Source: Flavobacteriales bacterium
GTDB taxonomy: Bacteria; Bacteroidota; Bacteroidia; Flavobacteriales; UBA7312
DNA: 64,000 nt
NCBI GenBank assembly: GCA_016779995.1
Contig: JADHMO010000003.1
Location: 102,733-166,732 of the forward strand
Direction: 5' to 3'
Shown: positions 395 through 4,858 of the stretch, in pieces
Layout: every line of letters begins with the position of its first letter
Numbering within the stretch: the first letter of the stretch is position 1
Notes under the pieces: generated by a model
Told to the model about the DNA's origin: nothing
Seen by the model: only the letters and a program-made list of their open reading frames with translations
Database searches by the model: none
Program-made: the position numbers and the translations under genes

Positions 395-423
395 TTGTTT
401 TTACACTTTTTAGCATATATTTG
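395..423 (+). promoter_or_regulatory. candidate Bacteroidota sigma-A promoter for the pfkA cluster
   Basis: gTTG (395-397), 18 nt, then TATATTTG (416-423). This matches the TTTG / TAnnTTTG (-33/-7) consensus. It lies about 20 nt upstream of the proposed ATT start of pfkA. Confidence 0.4.
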
Positions 424-443
424 CTAAAAATATACATTTAGAC

Positions 444-1415
444 ATTAAAAAAATTGCAATCATAACATCAGGAGGAGATTCTCCAGGCATGAATGCTGCG
501 CTTAGAAGTGTTGTTCGTTCAGCCAATTATCACGGCATAGAGTGTGTTGGTTTTTTTCGTGGTTATCAAGGTATAATAGAAAATGATTTCAAGCCGCTTA
601 AAATGCGTTCAGTGAGTAATATTCTTGAACTTGGCGGAACTGTTTTAAGAACAGCACGTTCTTTAGATTTTCATAAAGCTGAAGTTCGAGAAAAGGCTTA
701 TCATAATTTAAAGTTACAGAATATTGATGCATTAGTTGTTATTGGCGGTAACGGATCAATTACTGGTGCTAATATTTTTGGTAAACAATTTGACTTTCCA
801 TGCGTAGGTATTCCCGCTTCAATAGATAACGATATATATGGCACTGATTGTTCTATAGGTTTTCAGACAGCTTTACAAACCATAGTTGAGTCTGTGGATA
901 AAATTAGAGATACTGCCCGTTCTCACAATCGATTATTCTTTGTCGAAGTGATGGGTAGAGACAATGGTAATTTAGCACTTTATTCAGCCATTGCTTCTGG
1001 AGCATGTTTTGTAATAATTCCAGAAAAAGGATTTGAGATAAAAAATCTAGCCGAGCGATTGAAAACCGGAAAATCTTTGAGAAAATCATCTAGTATTGTA
1101 ATTGTAGCAGAAGGGAATAATTATGGTCCTTCCTATAAAATTGCTGAAGACTTAACAGAAGTATTTGATGAGTACGAATCTAAGGTTACTATTCTTGGAC
1201 ACTTACAAAGAGGAGGTTCGCCGGTGGTAATGGATAGGCTAATAGCAAGTCGATTAGGTTTGTCAGCAGTTCAAGCATTAATGTCTGAAAACTACGGCAA
1301 TATGGTTGGTATAATTGAAAATGAAACCGTATTGATTCCTATGCAAGATGTAGTAGATAAACAGAAAAATATAAACGAAGATTTATATAAGTTAAACAAA
1401 ATTATTTCAAGATAA
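444..1415 (+). CDS. pfkA: ATP-dependent 6-phosphofructokinase; start upstream of the first ATG, probably ATT 444
   Basis: Collinear with E. coli PfkA along the whole length (PGMNAA, SIDNDIYGTD, VEVMGR, LGHLQRGG). The essential N-terminal KKIAIITSGGDSPG is encoded at 447-488, upstream of the first ATG (489). The frame is open back to TAG 411-413 with no ATG/GTG/TTG. Confidence 0.9.
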   Translation: MKKIAIITSGGDSPGMNAALRSVVRSANYHGIECVGFFRGYQGIIENDFKPLKMRSVSNILELGGTVLRTARSLDFHKAEVREKAYHNLKLQNIDALVVIGGNGSITGANIFGKQFDFPCVGIPASIDNDIYGTDCSIGFQTALQTIVESVDKIRDTARSHNRLFFVEVMGRDNGNLALYSAIASGACFVIIPEKGFEIKNLAERLKTGKSLRKSSSIVIVAEGNNYGPSYKIAEDLTEVFDEYESKVTILGHLQRGGSPVVMDRLIASRLGLSAVQALMSENYGNMVGIIENETVLIPMQDVVDKQKNINEDLYKLNKIISR

Positions 1416-1416
1416 A

Positions 1417-2427
1417 ATGACAAAAATTAAAGTAGCAATTAATGGATTTGGAAGAATAGGAAGGAATTTTTTCCGTCAAGCTCTCGAATCTGATAATATA
1501 GAGGTCGTAGCAATTAACGACTTAACAGATGTAAAAACTTTAGCACATTTATTAAAGTATGACTCTACGCATGGCGTATTGACTAACAACGTTAGTCCTT
1601 CGGACAACAAGATTTTAGTTGATTCTACTGAAATACCAGTTTATTCATGCCCTAACCCTCAAGAATTACCTTGGAAAGCATTAGATGTTGATGTAGTATT
1701 AGAGTCTACAGGCCGTTTCTTAAATAACGAACAAGCTTTACAGCACGTAATAGCAGGAGCTAAAAAAGTTGTTATTTCAGCACCTTCACCTGACGCCAAA
1801 ACAGTCGTGTTGGGTGTAAATAATGAGGTGATTACTGATGAAGATTTTGTGTTTTCAAATGCTTCTTGTACAACCAATTGCTTAGCACCTATGGCAAAAG
1901 TTATCAACGATAACTTCGGTATTAAATCCGGTTATATAACGACTACACATGCTTTTACGGCAGACCAAAGTCTTCAAGATATGCCTCACAAAGATTTGAG
2001 AAGGGCACGTTCAGCAATGAATTCTATTATTCCTACAAAAACAGGTGCAGCATCTGCAGTTGGTAAAGTATTACCAAGTTTAAATGGTAAATTGGATGGC
2101 ATAGCTTTACGAGTGCCTGTGGCATGTGGTTCAATTACCGATTTCGTATGCATTACTGAAAAAGAAACAACTGCTGAAGAAGTCAATAACTTGTTACAAG
2201 CGGCATCCAACACATCAATGCAAGGAATCCTAGCCGTTAGCTCAGAACCTTTAGTTTCTATTGACATTGTTGGTAGAAAAGAATCATCAATTATTGATGC
2301 AGAATTAACTAAAGTTGATGGGAATTTGATTAAATTAGTTTCTTGGTACGATAACGAAACTGGATACTCAGCACGTCTAATAGATTTGTGTTCAATCGTT
2401 ACCGAAAAAGAACTAACAAAAATTTAA
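1417..2427 (+). CDS. gap: type I glyceraldehyde-3-phosphate dehydrogenase
   Basis: INGFGRIGR Rossmann N-terminus, active-site SNASCTTNCLAP, WYDNE C-terminal motif. Begins 1 nt after the pfkA stop. Confidence 0.95.
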   Translation: MTKIKVAINGFGRIGRNFFRQALESDNIEVVAINDLTDVKTLAHLLKYDSTHGVLTNNVSPSDNKILVDSTEIPVYSCPNPQELPWKALDVDVVLESTGRFLNNEQALQHVIAGAKKVVISAPSPDAKTVVLGVNNEVITDEDFVFSNASCTTNCLAPMAKVINDNFGIKSGYITTTHAFTADQSLQDMPHKDLRRARSAMNSIIPTKTGAASAVGKVLPSLNGKLDGIALRVPVACGSITDFVCITEKETTAEEVNNLLQAASNTSMQGILAVSSEPLVSIDIVGRKESSIIDAELTKVDGNLIKLVSWYDNETGYSARLIDLCSIVTEKELTKI

Positions 2428-2431
2428 TTCC

Positions 2432-2848
2432 ATGAGTAAAATAGCAGTAATAGCCCACGATAATTTCAAGCCAAATCTTTTAGAATTCCTTAAGGGGAAA
2501 AAATCATGGTTTTTTGGTAGAGAGATTGTTGCTACGGGAAGAACTGCTGAATTTTTAGAAGCTGGCGATTTACATTTGCCTCTTTTGCACGTCAATAAAG
2601 GGTCCGATGGCGGTTACCTTCAGATTACTGAAATGATAAAAAATGGTCAAGTAGGTATTGTGTTCTTTTTTAGAGATGCAACTATTGTTCAGCCTTATCA
2701 TGAAGACATTAGTAAACTGTTGAATACTTGCGATTTGGAAAATATCCCATTGAGCACTAATCAGGCTGGAGCAGAATTGTTAATTATCGGTAAAATAAGA
2801 ATGGAAGCTTCTGAAAAAGCACAATCTAAACTCAATTCAAATCAATGA
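2432..2848 (+). CDS. methylglyoxal synthase-like paralog (divergent, catalytic Asp position replaced)
   Basis: MGS fold motifs IAVIAHDNFK, ATGRTA and FFFRD. GSDGGY replaces SGPxGGD and PYHEDI replaces PHxPD (by-eye alignment to E. coli MgsA). Confidence 0.7.
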   Translation: MSKIAVIAHDNFKPNLLEFLKGKKSWFFGREIVATGRTAEFLEAGDLHLPLLHVNKGSDGGYLQITEMIKNGQVGIVFFFRDATIVQPYHEDISKLLNTCDLENIPLSTNQAGAELLIIGKIRMEASEKAQSKLNSNQ

Positions 2849-3210
2849 GGATAGCAATTATTGCACACGACGGCACCAAAGATCGCCTCAGGGGTTTTAT
2901 ACAATCCAAAATGGACGTGATTTCTAATCATACCATCGTTTGTACTAAAAGTACTTCTAAAATTGTCAAAGAATTTAATTTAAATGTTAGTGCAGTAGAA
3001 TCTGGGCCACTAGGAGGAGATGCACAAATAGCTGCACAAATAGTAACTAATGAAATAGAGGCTGTTCTCTTTTTGAGAGATCCATTAGGAAAGCACCCTC
3101 ACGAACCAGACATAAACATGTTGTTGAGATTGTGCGATGTGTACCAAGTCCCACTAGCAACCAATTTTAAAACAGCAGGGATTTTATTAAACCATTTTAA
3201 AAACCTTTAA
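2845..3210 (+). CDS. mgsA: methylglyoxal synthase
   Basis: IAIIAHDGTK, SGPLGGDAQI, LRDPL, HPHEPDINMLLRLC and VPLATN match MgsA catalytic and structural motifs. Start overlaps the upstream paralog stop (ATGA). Confidence 0.85.
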   Translation: MRIAIIAHDGTKDRLRGFIQSKMDVISNHTIVCTKSTSKIVKEFNLNVSAVESGPLGGDAQIAAQIVTNEIEAVLFLRDPLGKHPHEPDINMLLRLCDVYQVPLATNFKTAGILLNHFKNL

Positions 3211-3214
3211 TAAG

Positions 3215-4153
3215 ATGAAAGTAGTAGGAGTAGATATTGGTGGAACAAATACAGAATTAGCTGTCGTAGATTCTAAAGATGGAATTCTAAAAGTGAGTGC
3301 TTTCAAAACTAAAGCAAGTGATTCCTTTGCTCAGTATATTGATGATTTAAGTTGCCAAATTGAAGCATTAACATTGGAGTATTCTATAGATTCAATTGGG
3401 ATAGGTGCGCCTAACTTTGATTCTAAGGCACAAACGTTTTGTCCAGTTAATTTCCCTTGGGACGACTTAAAGCCGTTTAATTTAAAAGCACACTTAGAGA
3501 GTTTATTGAGTATTCCTACCTTTTTAATTAATGATGCCAATGCATCAGCTATGGCTGAAAATCGTTATGGTTCTGGTAAAAAATACAAAGATTTTTCTCT
3601 TATTACAGTAGGCACTGGATTAGGTGGTGGTATTATTATCAATAATCAACTTTTTGAAGGTGCTTTCGGATATGCTGGTGAATTCGGTCATACCAAAATA
3701 GAGGGTTTAGATAGACAATGTAATTGTGGTGGTGTAGGATGTTTAGAGACGGTTGTTTCTGCTAATGGCATCAAAAAGTCATATGCTGTTAATATGAAAG
3801 AAATAAAAAGCAGTGTTCCTACTCAAATTCCTTCGGTTAAAACCATTTTTGATAAAGCTAAAAATGGAGATAAAAGATGTCAGGCGATTTTAAATTTCAC
3901 ATTTGAAAAGCTAGGACAAAAAATGGCTGATTTTATACATGTCCTGAATCCAGAAGCTATTATTTTCTGTGGAAATATTGCCAAGTCTATGGAGAGTTAT
4001 TTGCCATTAATTTCTGGTTTTTGCGAGGAGCAATTACTTGATGACTTTAAAGGTAAAATACACTACGGAATCTCCGAATTACTTGATGACAAAATGAATG
4101 TTTTAGGACCAGCCTCATTAGCATTTACAAAAGCTGAAGAGTTAGTTAGCTAA
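3215..4153 (+). CDS. ROK family glucokinase / sugar kinase
   Basis: DIGGTN ATP-binding N-terminus, GTGLGGG, and the ROK zinc motif GHTKIEGLDRQCNCGGVGCLE. Confidence 0.8.
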   Translation: MKVVGVDIGGTNTELAVVDSKDGILKVSAFKTKASDSFAQYIDDLSCQIEALTLEYSIDSIGIGAPNFDSKAQTFCPVNFPWDDLKPFNLKAHLESLLSIPTFLINDANASAMAENRYGSGKKYKDFSLITVGTGLGGGIIINNQLFEGAFGYAGEFGHTKIEGLDRQCNCGGVGCLETVVSANGIKKSYAVNMKEIKSSVPTQIPSVKTIFDKAKNGDKRCQAILNFTFEKLGQKMADFIHVLNPEAIIFCGNIAKSMESYLPLISGFCEEQLLDDFKGKIHYGISELLDDKMNVLGPASLAFTKAEELVS

Positions 4154-4162
4154 AACCTTTAT

Positions 4163-4858
4163 TTATTGTTGGTTGAATTTGTAAAGCTCAGCAGGTTTGT
4201 GAGAAACACCTTTTTGCTTTTCGTTGGTTTTCTTTAATATTCCTTTACTTATAATCTGTTTTCTGAAGTTTCTTTTATCAAGCTTTTCATCCAAGATGAT
4301 TTCGTATAGTTCTTGCAGTTGCGATAAAGTGAACTTTCTGGGTAGTAATTCTGAAGTTACCTCATGATTTATTTCTGTTCTCAAGAACTGAATAGCATCA
4401 TCAACAATTAAGTTATGGTCAAATGCCATTTCTGGAATATTTTCTATATCTGTCCAACATACATCGTGGGCAAAATAAGAGGCTTGAGGATTATAGTCTT
4501 CCATTCTAACAATAGAAACGTATCCAACTGTAATTACTCTTTCGTTAGGGTCGGATCTAAAATTTACTAACCACTCTTTATCTTTTTCTTCTTGTACACG
4601 TGTTGGGTTACCAAAGGTTTTGAATTGCTTAAGATATAAGTTGTCTAATTTTGTTAAGCTAAAAAGAATTCTATTGGCAGCATCGTCAATGTCTTCGTCA
4701 AGTTCAATGAGATCACCAGGAATAGCAAATTGAGTTTTCTTATGGTCTTGCTTTGAAAATGGATTTACCTTTTTTTCAATAGTTAAAACTTTTAGTTTTT
4801 TTTCAGTATCATTAAAACCGAAAATTACACAATCGACAGAAACATTAATCTTAGACAT
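4163..4858 (-). CDS. Nudix-related transcriptional regulator (NrtR-like: degenerate Nudix domain plus C-terminal winged-helix-like domain)
   Basis: The N-terminal half has a Nudix-fold pattern, but the Nudix box is degenerate (PGDLIELDEDIDDAANRILFSLTKL lacks RExxEE). The C-terminal about 70 aa (FTLSQLQELYEIILDEKLDKRNFRKQI) resembles the NrtR DNA-binding domain. Confidence 0.55.
   Translation of the reverse strand: MSKINVSVDCVIFGFNDTEKKLKVLTIEKKVNPFSKQDHKKTQFAIPGDLIELDEDIDDAANRILFSLTKLDNLYLKQFKTFGNPTRVQEEKDKEWLVNFRSDPNERVITVGYVSIVRMEDYNPQASYFAHDVCWTDIENIPEMAFDHNLIVDDAIQFLRTEINHEVTSELLPRKFTLSQLQELYEIILDEKLDKRNFRKQIISKGILKKTNEKQKGVSHKPAELYKFNQQ

Follow-up and report, generated by a model that had tools for sequence, protein, structure and literature searches.

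A canonical-type methylglyoxal synthase and a Tyr71-type protein of the same fold lie side by side in a glycolytic operon of a marine Flavobacteriales bacterium

Genes at the locus

The window analyzed here, the whole 64-kb stretch of DNA from a low-GC marine Flavobacteriales bacterium, carries five tightly packed genes that form a glycolytic operon (Table 1). The order is pfk, gap, two genes related to methylglyoxal synthase (MGS) and a gene for a ROK-family kinase. The proteins of the two middle genes are called UP (upstream) and DN (downstream) here. A preliminary description of this DNA had placed them in two overlapping open reading frames (ORFs), and the coordinates given there were borne out; both frames are on the plus strand. 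The stop codon of UP overlaps the start codon of DN, which points to translational coupling of the two genes. The first ATG of the 6-phosphofructokinase (PFK) gene is at 489, and the conserved N-terminus is coded further 5′, from a probable ATT start. The in-frame translation of 399–530, covering the region 5′ of this ATG, reads IKKIAIITSGGDSPGMNAAL. The gene for glyceraldehyde-3-phosphate dehydrogenase (GAPDH) starts 1 nt past the PFK gene. The ROK kinase also matches TIGR00744, with a score under the cutoff of that model. The gene of a Nudix-related regulator is convergent with the operon; it adjoins the operon in related genomes (loci L001–L013) and adjoins PFK in L019, L022, L023, L030, L048 and L069. 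No third MGS homolog and no PGI was found within the 64-kb window.

Table 1. Genes and sequence features at the locus (positions within the window; residue numbers are those of E. coli MgsA)
Feature	Position	Strand	Evidence or remark
6-Phosphofructokinase, first gene of the operon	444..1415	+	Pfam PF00365, E 4.7e-97; NCBIfam NF002872, above cutoff
Type I glyceraldehyde-3-phosphate dehydrogenase	1417..2427	+	TIGR01534, 414 bits vs cutoff 367
UP, 138 aa, Tyr71-subfamily protein with the MGS fold	2432..2848	+	PF02142, NF003559, AF2 model
UP phosphate loop ATGRTA (44–49)	2531..2548	+	Thr47 to Arg, Gly49 to Ala
UP loop GSDGGY (66–71)	2600..2617	+	Tyr at catalytic-base position 71; HMMER vs 8u2v, 6f2c
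UP YHED (98–101)	2696..2707	+	His98 to Tyr; His99 typical of the subfamily; Asp101 kept
Overlap of UP stop and DN start, ATGA	2845..2848	+	Sequence read
DN, canonical-type methylglyoxal synthase, 121 aa	2845..3210	+	NF003559, 144.6 bits vs cutoff 84; 6f2c, E 3.1e-31
DN loop CTKSTS (44–49)	2941..2958	+	Thr45, Thr48 kept; Gly46 to Lys, Thr47 to Ser, Gly49 to Ser
DN SGPLGGD, catalytic-base motif (Ser65–Asp71)	3001..3021	+	Alignment
DN PHEPD (His98 and Asp101)	3097..3111	+	Alignment
Sugar kinase of the ROK family, probable glucokinase; closes the operon	3215..4153	+	PF00480, E 1.1e-52
NrtR/AraR-type Nudix-related transcription regulator	4163..4858	-	PF21906, E 1.3e-26; also PF19368

The downstream protein

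Both proteins had been described as homologs of MgsA, and matches to PF02142, to NF003559 and to MGS structures, much stronger than chance would give, agree with this. DN fits the Pfam model with an E value of 3e-11 and exceeds the NCBIfam methylglyoxal synthase model (Table 1). It falls slightly short of the cutoff of TIGR00160 (141.6 vs 146.9). It matches every solved MGS structure, the best match being MgsA of B. subtilis. The roles of MGS residues are taken from PMC7843640. In HMMER and MAFFT alignments DN has H19, D20, K23, T45, K46, S47, T48, S49, S65, G66, D71, D91, H98, D101 and R107. It thus holds all the catalytic residues (Asp71, His19, His98, Asp20, Asp91 and Asp101), and the SGPLGGD, RDP and PHEPD motifs read by eye in the preliminary description are seen in the alignments. 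DN is best read as the genuine MGS of the pair, with a predicted activity of converting DHAP to methylglyoxal and phosphate.

The phosphate site of DN contains Lys23, Thr45, Thr48, Ser65 and Gly66, with TKSTS in place of TGTTG. The change of this loop had been noticed before, and the replacements of Gly46 by Lys and of Gly49 by Ser are real. These two are the sole real departures, however, so that the loss of the site had been overstated: Thr45 and Thr48 are kept, and Thr47 to Ser is conservative. The loop CTK[S/N]TS is found in 20 of 23 full-length clusters of the DN clade (75–86% identity). The three exceptions are cluster P0106 and two clusters with one differing residue. The next 87 canonical MGS sequences have TGTTG, and CTK[S/N]TS occurs in none of them. 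The dN/dS values for DN are 0.04–0.25. DN is nested among the canonical MGS of Bacteroidota in the tree, and its median identity to canonical MGS is 52%. By this pattern of conservation, the DN loop is a selected, clade-specific variant. It may tune the binding of phosphate or the inhibition by it, and would abolish neither.

The upstream protein

UP matches PF02142 with an E value of 8.6e-7 and every solved MGS structure, with a best E value of 9.5e-19. It is above the cutoff of NF003559 (93 vs 84 bits) and below that of the stricter equivalog model TIGR00160 (83 vs 146.9). The AF2 model of UP has a pLDDT of 92.9, and its best matches in the PDB are MGS structures with TM scores of 0.79–0.88. 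The identity between UP and DN is 34%.

The same alignments give H19, D20, K23, T45, G46, R47, T48, A49, K65, G66, Y71, D91, Y98, H99, D101 and N107 for UP, including the replacements of Asp71 and His98 by Tyr that the preliminary description had reported. Asp71 is the catalytic base of MGS (PMC7843640). The SGPxGGD motif reads KGSDGGY in UP, and Asp71, Ser65 and Pro67 are all gone. His98, which serves in proton transfer and conformational control in MGS, is a tyrosine in the UP of the window. UP had been said to keep the phosphate loop, and this is right in part. Lys23, Thr45, Gly46, Thr48 and Gly66 are kept, but Thr47 is replaced by Arg, Gly49 by Ala and Ser65 by Lys. The canonical invariants missing from UP are Ser65, Pro67, Pro92 and Arg107. 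Position 107, an arginine in canonical MGS with a frequency of 0.97, is Asn in the UP of the window; the subfamily as a whole has Glu, Asp, Asn or Lys there.

Conservation, selection and phylogeny

A genome scan gave at least 329 loci of the UP type, of which 80 species loci were examined in detail. Tyr71, His62 and Ala49 are present in 80 of 80 loci, an Arg or Lys at position 47 in 79 (nearly all Arg) and His99 in 78. Position 98 is His in 58 loci, Tyr in 17 and Asn in 4. The residues retained across the loci are His19, Asp20, Lys23, Thr45, Thr48, Asp91 and Asp101. At least about 95 homologs of UP, with identities down to 46%, range from Flavobacteriales to Bacteroidales, and Tyr71, Arg47 and His99 are present in all of them. 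Trp36, His62, Glu124, Leu125 and Gly129 are invariant in the UP family alone. Positions 49 and 71 are conserved within the UP family and within the canonical family, but the residues differ between the two; Asp71 is invariant among 142 canonical MGS sequences.

The dN/dS values for UP (0.04–0.18) indicate purifying selection. In the tree, UP forms a separate deep clade apart from canonical MGS, with 30–36% identity to the DN clade. Judged from its sequence, UP is a member of an old, Bacteroidota-wide sister family of the MGS fold, not a decayed duplicate. The preliminary description had aligned UP to MgsA and had itself named membership of UP in a different family of MGS-like fold as an outcome that would speak against its reading of the pair; that outcome is by and large what we found. 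A recent tandem duplication with complementary decay is rejected, given the 34% identity, the separate deep clade of UP and the position of DN within canonical MGS.

It is most improbable that UP is a pseudogene in decay or a relic without function left by a tandem duplication. The UP of the window does lack Asp71, His98 and Ser65, as such a relic might. Its ORF is intact, however, its fold is predicted confidently, and a signature that is invariant over 80 species of several orders, together with the dN/dS values, contradicts the pseudogene reading; nor does its place in the tree make it a recent duplicate. Since the substitutions of UP are invariant or nearly so in the 80 loci and the gene is under purifying selection, they represent re-tooling rather than decay.

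A second alternative is that UP is a working MGS isozyme, in which Tyr71 would serve as the base activated by Arg47 and His99, giving the operon two differently regulated MGS enzymes. The score above the NF003559 cutoff is consistent with this, as are the retained His19, Asp20, Lys23, Thr45, Thr48, Gly66, Asp91 and Asp101 and the His98 of most family members; on such grounds UP may have some residual MGS activity, or one that relies on an alternative base. The setting of UP in triose- and sugar-phosphate operons is also that of canonical MGS in related taxa. However, the residue replaced by Tyr71 is the catalytic base itself, invariant in the canonical sequences, and with the loss of Ser65 and Pro67 from SGPxGGD, the low TIGR00160 score and the oddity of a redundant second MGS within one operon, we regard an isozyme as quite unlikely.

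Gene neighborhoods

Co-occurrence of UP and DN was counted at the level of the locus in the 80 UP loci, all of which are within triose- or sugar-phosphate operons. In about 50 of them UP is flanked by the two parts of a split transketolase (TktN-UP-TktC). In about 11 it lies between a sugar kinase and a beta-phosphoglucomutase (kinase-UP-beta-PGM-GH65). The intergenic spacing is operon-like in each context. An MGS gene is found beside UP in seven loci and in none of the other 73, so at this level the expectation that the pair always co-occurs does not hold. Six sister loci (L005–8, L010 and L012) have the same glycolytic operon minus DN. Because the UP family is conserved across Bacteroidota, mostly without an adjoining ordinary MGS, the pair does not consist of two half-broken copies. 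The earlier proposal that the two paralogs had lost different parts of the site fails on both sides: UP belongs to a separate clade under purifying selection, and the change in DN is conservative and fixed in its clade.

Canonical MGS of related marine Flavobacteriales is also found in sugar operons, for example as PGI-MGS, which makes the operon position of DN unremarkable. DN would be an accessory gene of the operon, lost or decaying in sister lineages. The DN ortholog in L003 (P0106) has D91N, H98Q and an altered loop, and looks degenerate. P0125 and P0129 were considered as an ancestral state in which a canonical DN stands next to ROK. They are canonical-5′/DN-3′ chimeras with a shared nucleotide breakpoint, and were rejected; the genuine canonical protein has another C-terminus and another context.

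These neighborhoods bear on a third alternative, in which UP and DN of this clade form a mixed hexamer with DN as the catalytic subunit, while UP takes no part in catalysis and serves to regulate the enzyme or to sense phosphate. The MGS fold, predicted or known for both proteins, forms hexamers in the structures solved so far. The UP-to-DN spacing is -16 to +7 nt in the seven other genomes with the pair; the ATGA overlap or such spacing is kept in eight genomes, whose UP is 61–98% identical to that of the window, and the CTK[S/N]TS loop of DN is restricted to the clade adjoining UP. Among the top 150 family representatives, 13 are fusions of two MGS domains, one canonical and one degenerate, so that pairings of a catalytic and a dead MGS do exist in nature. 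On the other side, 73 of the 80 UP loci have no adjoining MGS, and UP persists in sister lineages after the loss of DN. Genomes that have DN and genomes that lack it show no fixed difference at any residue of UP. The Arg107 of canonical MGS is gone from UP, and the degenerate domains of the fusions are not of the UP type. A hetero-oligomer is possible in this clade, yet it is not the general role of UP, and as the explanation of the pair we consider it unlikely.

Comparison with known systems

MgsA (EC 4.2.3.3; E. coli 1B93/1EGH, B. subtilis 6F2C and Elizabethkingia 6PHE) has its fold and approximately 120 alignable residues in common with UP and DN. DN differs from MgsA in the loop alone (G46K, T47S and G49S). 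In contrast, UP has Tyr71 for Asp71 along with Arg47, Ala49, His62 and His99, lacks Ser65, Pro67 and Arg107, and stands in a separate clade.

The C-terminal allosteric domain of CPS (CarB/CPS1) has the same fold as UP, is non-catalytic and binds phosphorylated effectors; it is a precedent for a sensor with the MGS fold. It is a weaker structural match to UP (TM approximately 0.6). UP is free-standing and far nearer to true MGS (E 1e-26) than to the CPS domain (E 0.03), and a closer relation of UP to the MGS-like domains of CPS or PurH than to MgsA was rejected on these values.

The MGS-MGS fusions (for example P0229, P0236, P0266, P0319 and P0291) combine a canonical domain with one from which Asp71 and further catalytic residues are missing. 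In many of them the variant domain comes first, which is the same order as UP followed by DN. Unlike UP, these degenerate domains lack Arg47, His62, Tyr71 and His99, and they come from other lineages.

Crh is a small protein partner that inhibits MgsA of B. subtilis. This system is a precedent for the control of MGS by a small partner protein (reference 4 in PMC7843640). Crh is HPr-like and not an MGS paralog, and no Crh homolog is involved at the UP-DN locus. A literature search gave nothing relevant on Tyr-variant, heteromeric or pseudoenzyme MGS, on MGS-like proteins or on proteins of the UP subfamily.

Possible roles of the two proteins

The explanation that we favor, with moderate confidence, is that UP and DN have separate histories and probably separate jobs, DN being an orthodox MGS and UP an autonomous, re-tooled protein of the MGS fold. 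What was observed in its favor are the homology and residue patterns of the two proteins, their selection and phylogeny, and the neighborhoods of their genes. UP keeps residues that would form the scaffold for phosphate binding and hydrogen bonds (His19, Asp20, Lys23, Thr45, Thr48, Gly66, Asp91 and Asp101), with Arg47, Ala49, His62, Tyr71 and His99 as an invariant replacement set around the pocket. UP may bind a triose phosphate, a sugar phosphate or a phospho-carboxylate. UP may catalyze another reaction through Tyr71, His99 and Arg47, or it may sense a metabolite. At the level of the protein, UP would work independently of DN.

A broader proposal takes the Tyr71/Arg47/His62/His99 subfamily as a new enzyme or metabolite sensor in the central carbon metabolism of Bacteroidota, which works together with PFK, GAPDH and split transketolase. 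Within the marine Flavobacteriales clade of the window it would have been joined by a recruited, translationally coupled and loop-modified MGS in a mixed hexamer, in which the ligand of UP gates the methylglyoxal bypass. We hold this combined scheme to be doubtful at best.

Proteins of the UP type are labeled methylglyoxal synthase in hundreds of Bacteroidota genomes, although they lack the catalytic base. Where metabolic reconstructions infer a methylglyoxal bypass from such an annotation, the bypass may be wrong. Its small size, its strong conservation and its constant setting in sugar-phosphate operons make the subfamily a clear target in the search for a new activity or regulatory ligand on a well-understood fold. 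The position of UP between the halves of split transketolase is especially striking. The UP-DN pair itself is a natural test case for cooperation between a re-tooled paralog and the ancestral enzyme.

Two features of the pair hint at a specific relationship between UP and DN, which is treated as incidental in the explanation favored above. One is the ATGA overlap. The other is the confinement of CTK[S/N]TS to the clade where DN follows UP.

Results and Discussion

The window contains two genes of the methylglyoxal synthase (MGS) fold, an upstream one (UP) and a downstream one (DN). They belong to a tightly packed operon with gaps of 1, 4, −4 and 4 nt across PFK, GAPDH, UP, DN and ROK, and ATGA forms the overlap of the UP and DN ORFs.

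Coordinates of the operon genes and the adjoining regulator gene in the window
Feature	Position	Strand	Remarks
6-Phosphofructokinase (PFK)	ends 1415		operon gene 1
Type I GAPDH	1417-2427		operon gene 2
UP	2432-2848	same as DN	138 aa; operon gene 3
DN	2845-3210	same as UP	121 aa; operon gene 4
ROK-family sugar kinase (ROK)	3215-4153		operon gene 5
NrtR/AraR-type Nudix-related regulator	4163-4858	-	convergent with the operon

The regulator is probably a local, sugar-responsive one. Such a gene also adjoins PFK in loci L019, L022, L023, L030, L048 and L069 from other genomes, and this position is kept in the Flavobacteriales and Cytophagales forms of the UP-containing cluster. In the PFK start region (window 399-530), a conserved N-terminus (IKKIAIITSGGDSPGMN) lies in frame 5′ of the first ATG (489). 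This region offers no ATG, GTG or TTG upstream of 489, and the start codon is probably ATT at 444-446. The same short ORF call is found in L001, L002 and L005-7.

Canonical MGS genes of related marine Flavobacteriales lie directly 3′ of a bacterial-type PGI (SSF transporter - PGI - MGS) or of Sua5; in other Bacteroidota they are monocistronic. Since canonical MGS follows PGI in related taxa, an MGS gene within a sugar operon is not unusual. In marine Crocinitomicaceae-like contigs (L089-L103, for example L091:342-3375), canonical MGS has a conserved position 8-11 nt 3′ of PGI (bact-PGI_C), often with an SSF sugar transporter before PGI, which looks like a PGI-MGS operon.

Both proteins score above the cutoffs of Pfam MGS and NCBIfam NF003559 ("methylglyoxal synthase") and under that of the stricter TIGR00160 (146.9 bits; UP 83, DN 141.6). 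Each matches every solved MGS structure, and the two are 34% identical. In MGS (E. coli MgsA numbering), D71 serves as the base in abstraction of the C3 proton, with help from H19 and H98, and the phosphate is bound by K23, S65 and T45-G49 (PMC7843640). HMMER and MAFFT alignments assign H19, D20, K23, T45, K46, S47, T48, S49, S65, G66, D71, D91, H98, D101 and R107 to DN, and H19, D20, K23, T45, G46, R47, T48, A49, K65, G66, Y71, D91, Y98, H99, D101 and N107 to UP; positions 71 and 98 are thus both Tyr in the window copy of UP. The residue readings of the preliminary description are correct, with two amendments. The phosphate loop it regarded as kept in UP does read ATGRTA, but is itself altered (T47R, G49A), as is S65, now Lys. 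The loop it regarded as degraded in DN reads CTKSTS, but Thr45 and Thr48 are still there, with Ser at 47.

A protein search with UP returned, among the matches listed, approximately 95 relatives with identities down to 46%, spanning Flavobacteriales to Bacteroidales and Tenuifilaceae. The residues R47, A49, Y71, H99 and D101 occur in virtually all of them, in addition to H19, D20, K23, T45, G46 and T48. When each GTDB species was represented by one genome, a scan gave 329 UP-encoding loci. In the best 80 of these, Y71, H62, A49, H19 and D91 are invariant (80/80), R or K occupies position 47 in 79, D101 is present in 79 and H99 in 78. His98 is kept in 58 of the 80, and Tyr98 is a trait of a Flavobacteriales sub-lineage. 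Positions 49 and 71 are conserved both within the UP family and within 142 canonical MGS sequences, with different residues in each. Compared with the latter, UP has lost the invariants S65, P67, P92, P97, R107 and A117, and has its own in W36, H62 and, in the long C-terminal helix, E124, L125 and G129. That UP is an MGS isozyme using an alternative base at position 71 seems decidedly unlikely. The AlphaFold2 model is a confident MGS fold (pLDDT 92.9); its best PDB matches are MGS structures, the MGS-like domains of CPS and PurH being far weaker. In pairwise comparisons with close relatives, dN/dS is 0.04-0.18, and a functionless relic is most improbable. Judged by this conservation, UP belongs to a conserved subfamily and is not a decayed copy. 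When 1.8 billion cluster representatives were searched with a profile, the signature of this subfamily was confined to very few 50%-identity clusters among 2467 MGS-like representatives. Two UP-type loci (L048 and L069) with gene order typical of Bacteroidota come from MAGs named "Hyphobacterium sp." and "Chryseobacterium gleum", probably through bin mislabelling or contamination.

Approximately 24 clusters, 75-86% identical, make up the close clade of DN, and every one comes from marine Flavobacteriales. Of the 23 full-length clusters, 20 have the loop CTK[S/N]TS; P0106, which is degenerate, departs from it, as do two others by a single residue each. The next 87 matches listed are at most 59% identical, come mostly from Bacteroidota and read TGTTG, with catalytic residues identical to those of DN. 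The dN/dS of DN is 0.04-0.25. By its residues, DN is an MGS of the canonical type whose loop is specific to its lineage. The highest value of the set, 0.25, belongs to the DN ortholog of a close relative (L003:6414-6779; P0106), in which D91N, H98Q and the loop YTRGTS suggest decay and a possible loss of MGS activity. The pair is not a recent tandem duplication, because a rough NJ tree places the DN clade inside canonical MGS and the UP family on a separate deep branch. The earlier picture of tandem paralogs that each degraded a different part of the site does not hold, as UP stands apart with a conserved signature and DN is canonical.

A survey at the locus level revealed that the pair is not constant. 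DN adjoins UP in only 7 of the best 80 loci (L001-4, L009, L011, L013), all seven sharing the operon of the window. Six loci (L005-8, L010, L012) have this operon with UP followed directly by ROK, and no DN remnant was seen between them. At approximately 50 loci (L016, L020, L029, L033-L080; for example L016:5120-7396) from Bacteroidales, Tenuifilaceae, Rikenellaceae and Marinilabiliales, UP is flanked on either side by one half of a split transketolase, and an ECF sigma factor generally comes after them. The N-terminal half is TPP-binding, the C-terminal half holds the pyrimidine-binding and C-terminal domains, and median gaps are approximately 30 nt. Approximately 11 loci from Cytophagales, Crocinitomicaceae, Schleiferia and Thermaurantimonas have the order (NrtR, PFK) - BadF-type kinase - UP - β-phosphoglucomutase-like HAD - GH65 phosphorylase. 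Intergenic distances are operon-like in all contexts. Among the UP loci compared, no residue is fixed differently between DN-containing and DN-less genomes. Given this, the DN-less operons and the apparent decay of DN in L003, UP is the constant gene of the pair and DN is dispensable.

A clade-specific UP-DN heteromer would fit the stop-start overlap or near-abutment conserved in eight genomes with the pair, and the occurrence of DN's unusual loop only where DN follows UP. Pairings of catalytic and dead MGS domains do exist in nature, since naturally occurring two-domain fusions account for 13 of the best 150 family representatives (P0223-P0225, P0227, P0229, P0236, P0249, P0252, P0266, P0272, P0291, P0319, P0345), with one domain canonical and the other lacking D71 and further catalytic residues. 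However, their dead domains are not UP-type, and we consider the heteromer unlikely. Some of these fusions look eukaryotic or secreted, and none has a useful database name.

In the best-supported model, DN would be the working MGS, with a variant loop that probably tunes phosphate affinity or inhibition. UP would be an autonomous, re-tooled MGS-fold protein; it keeps its scaffold residues, with an Arg added, and we propose that it still binds a phosphorylated metabolite. It could perform different chemistry via Tyr71, His99, His62 and Arg47, or act as a sensor, for which the CPS allosteric domain, an MGS fold used for ligand sensing, may be a precedent. Our literature search found no paper on Tyr71-type MGS, heteromeric MGS or MGS pseudoenzymes. 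UP-type proteins are annotated publicly as "methylglyoxal synthase" and form an uncharacterised subfamily that is probably mis-annotated; the lineage of the window is one where such a gene sits beside the ancestral enzyme. The pair is a clean target for enzymology and annotation and does not overturn current understanding.

Two short metagenome contigs (L084:479-850, P0125; L085:74-445, P0129) were rejected as cases of a canonical MGS upstream of ROK. The first approximately 54 codons are of the canonical marine-Flavobacteriales type, and the rest of the gene and the downstream ROK are 89-97% identical in nucleotides to the DN locus of L001, with the same nucleotide breakpoint in both. These genes are assembly chimeras or recombinants between two paralogs; L084 is also discontinuous within ROK.
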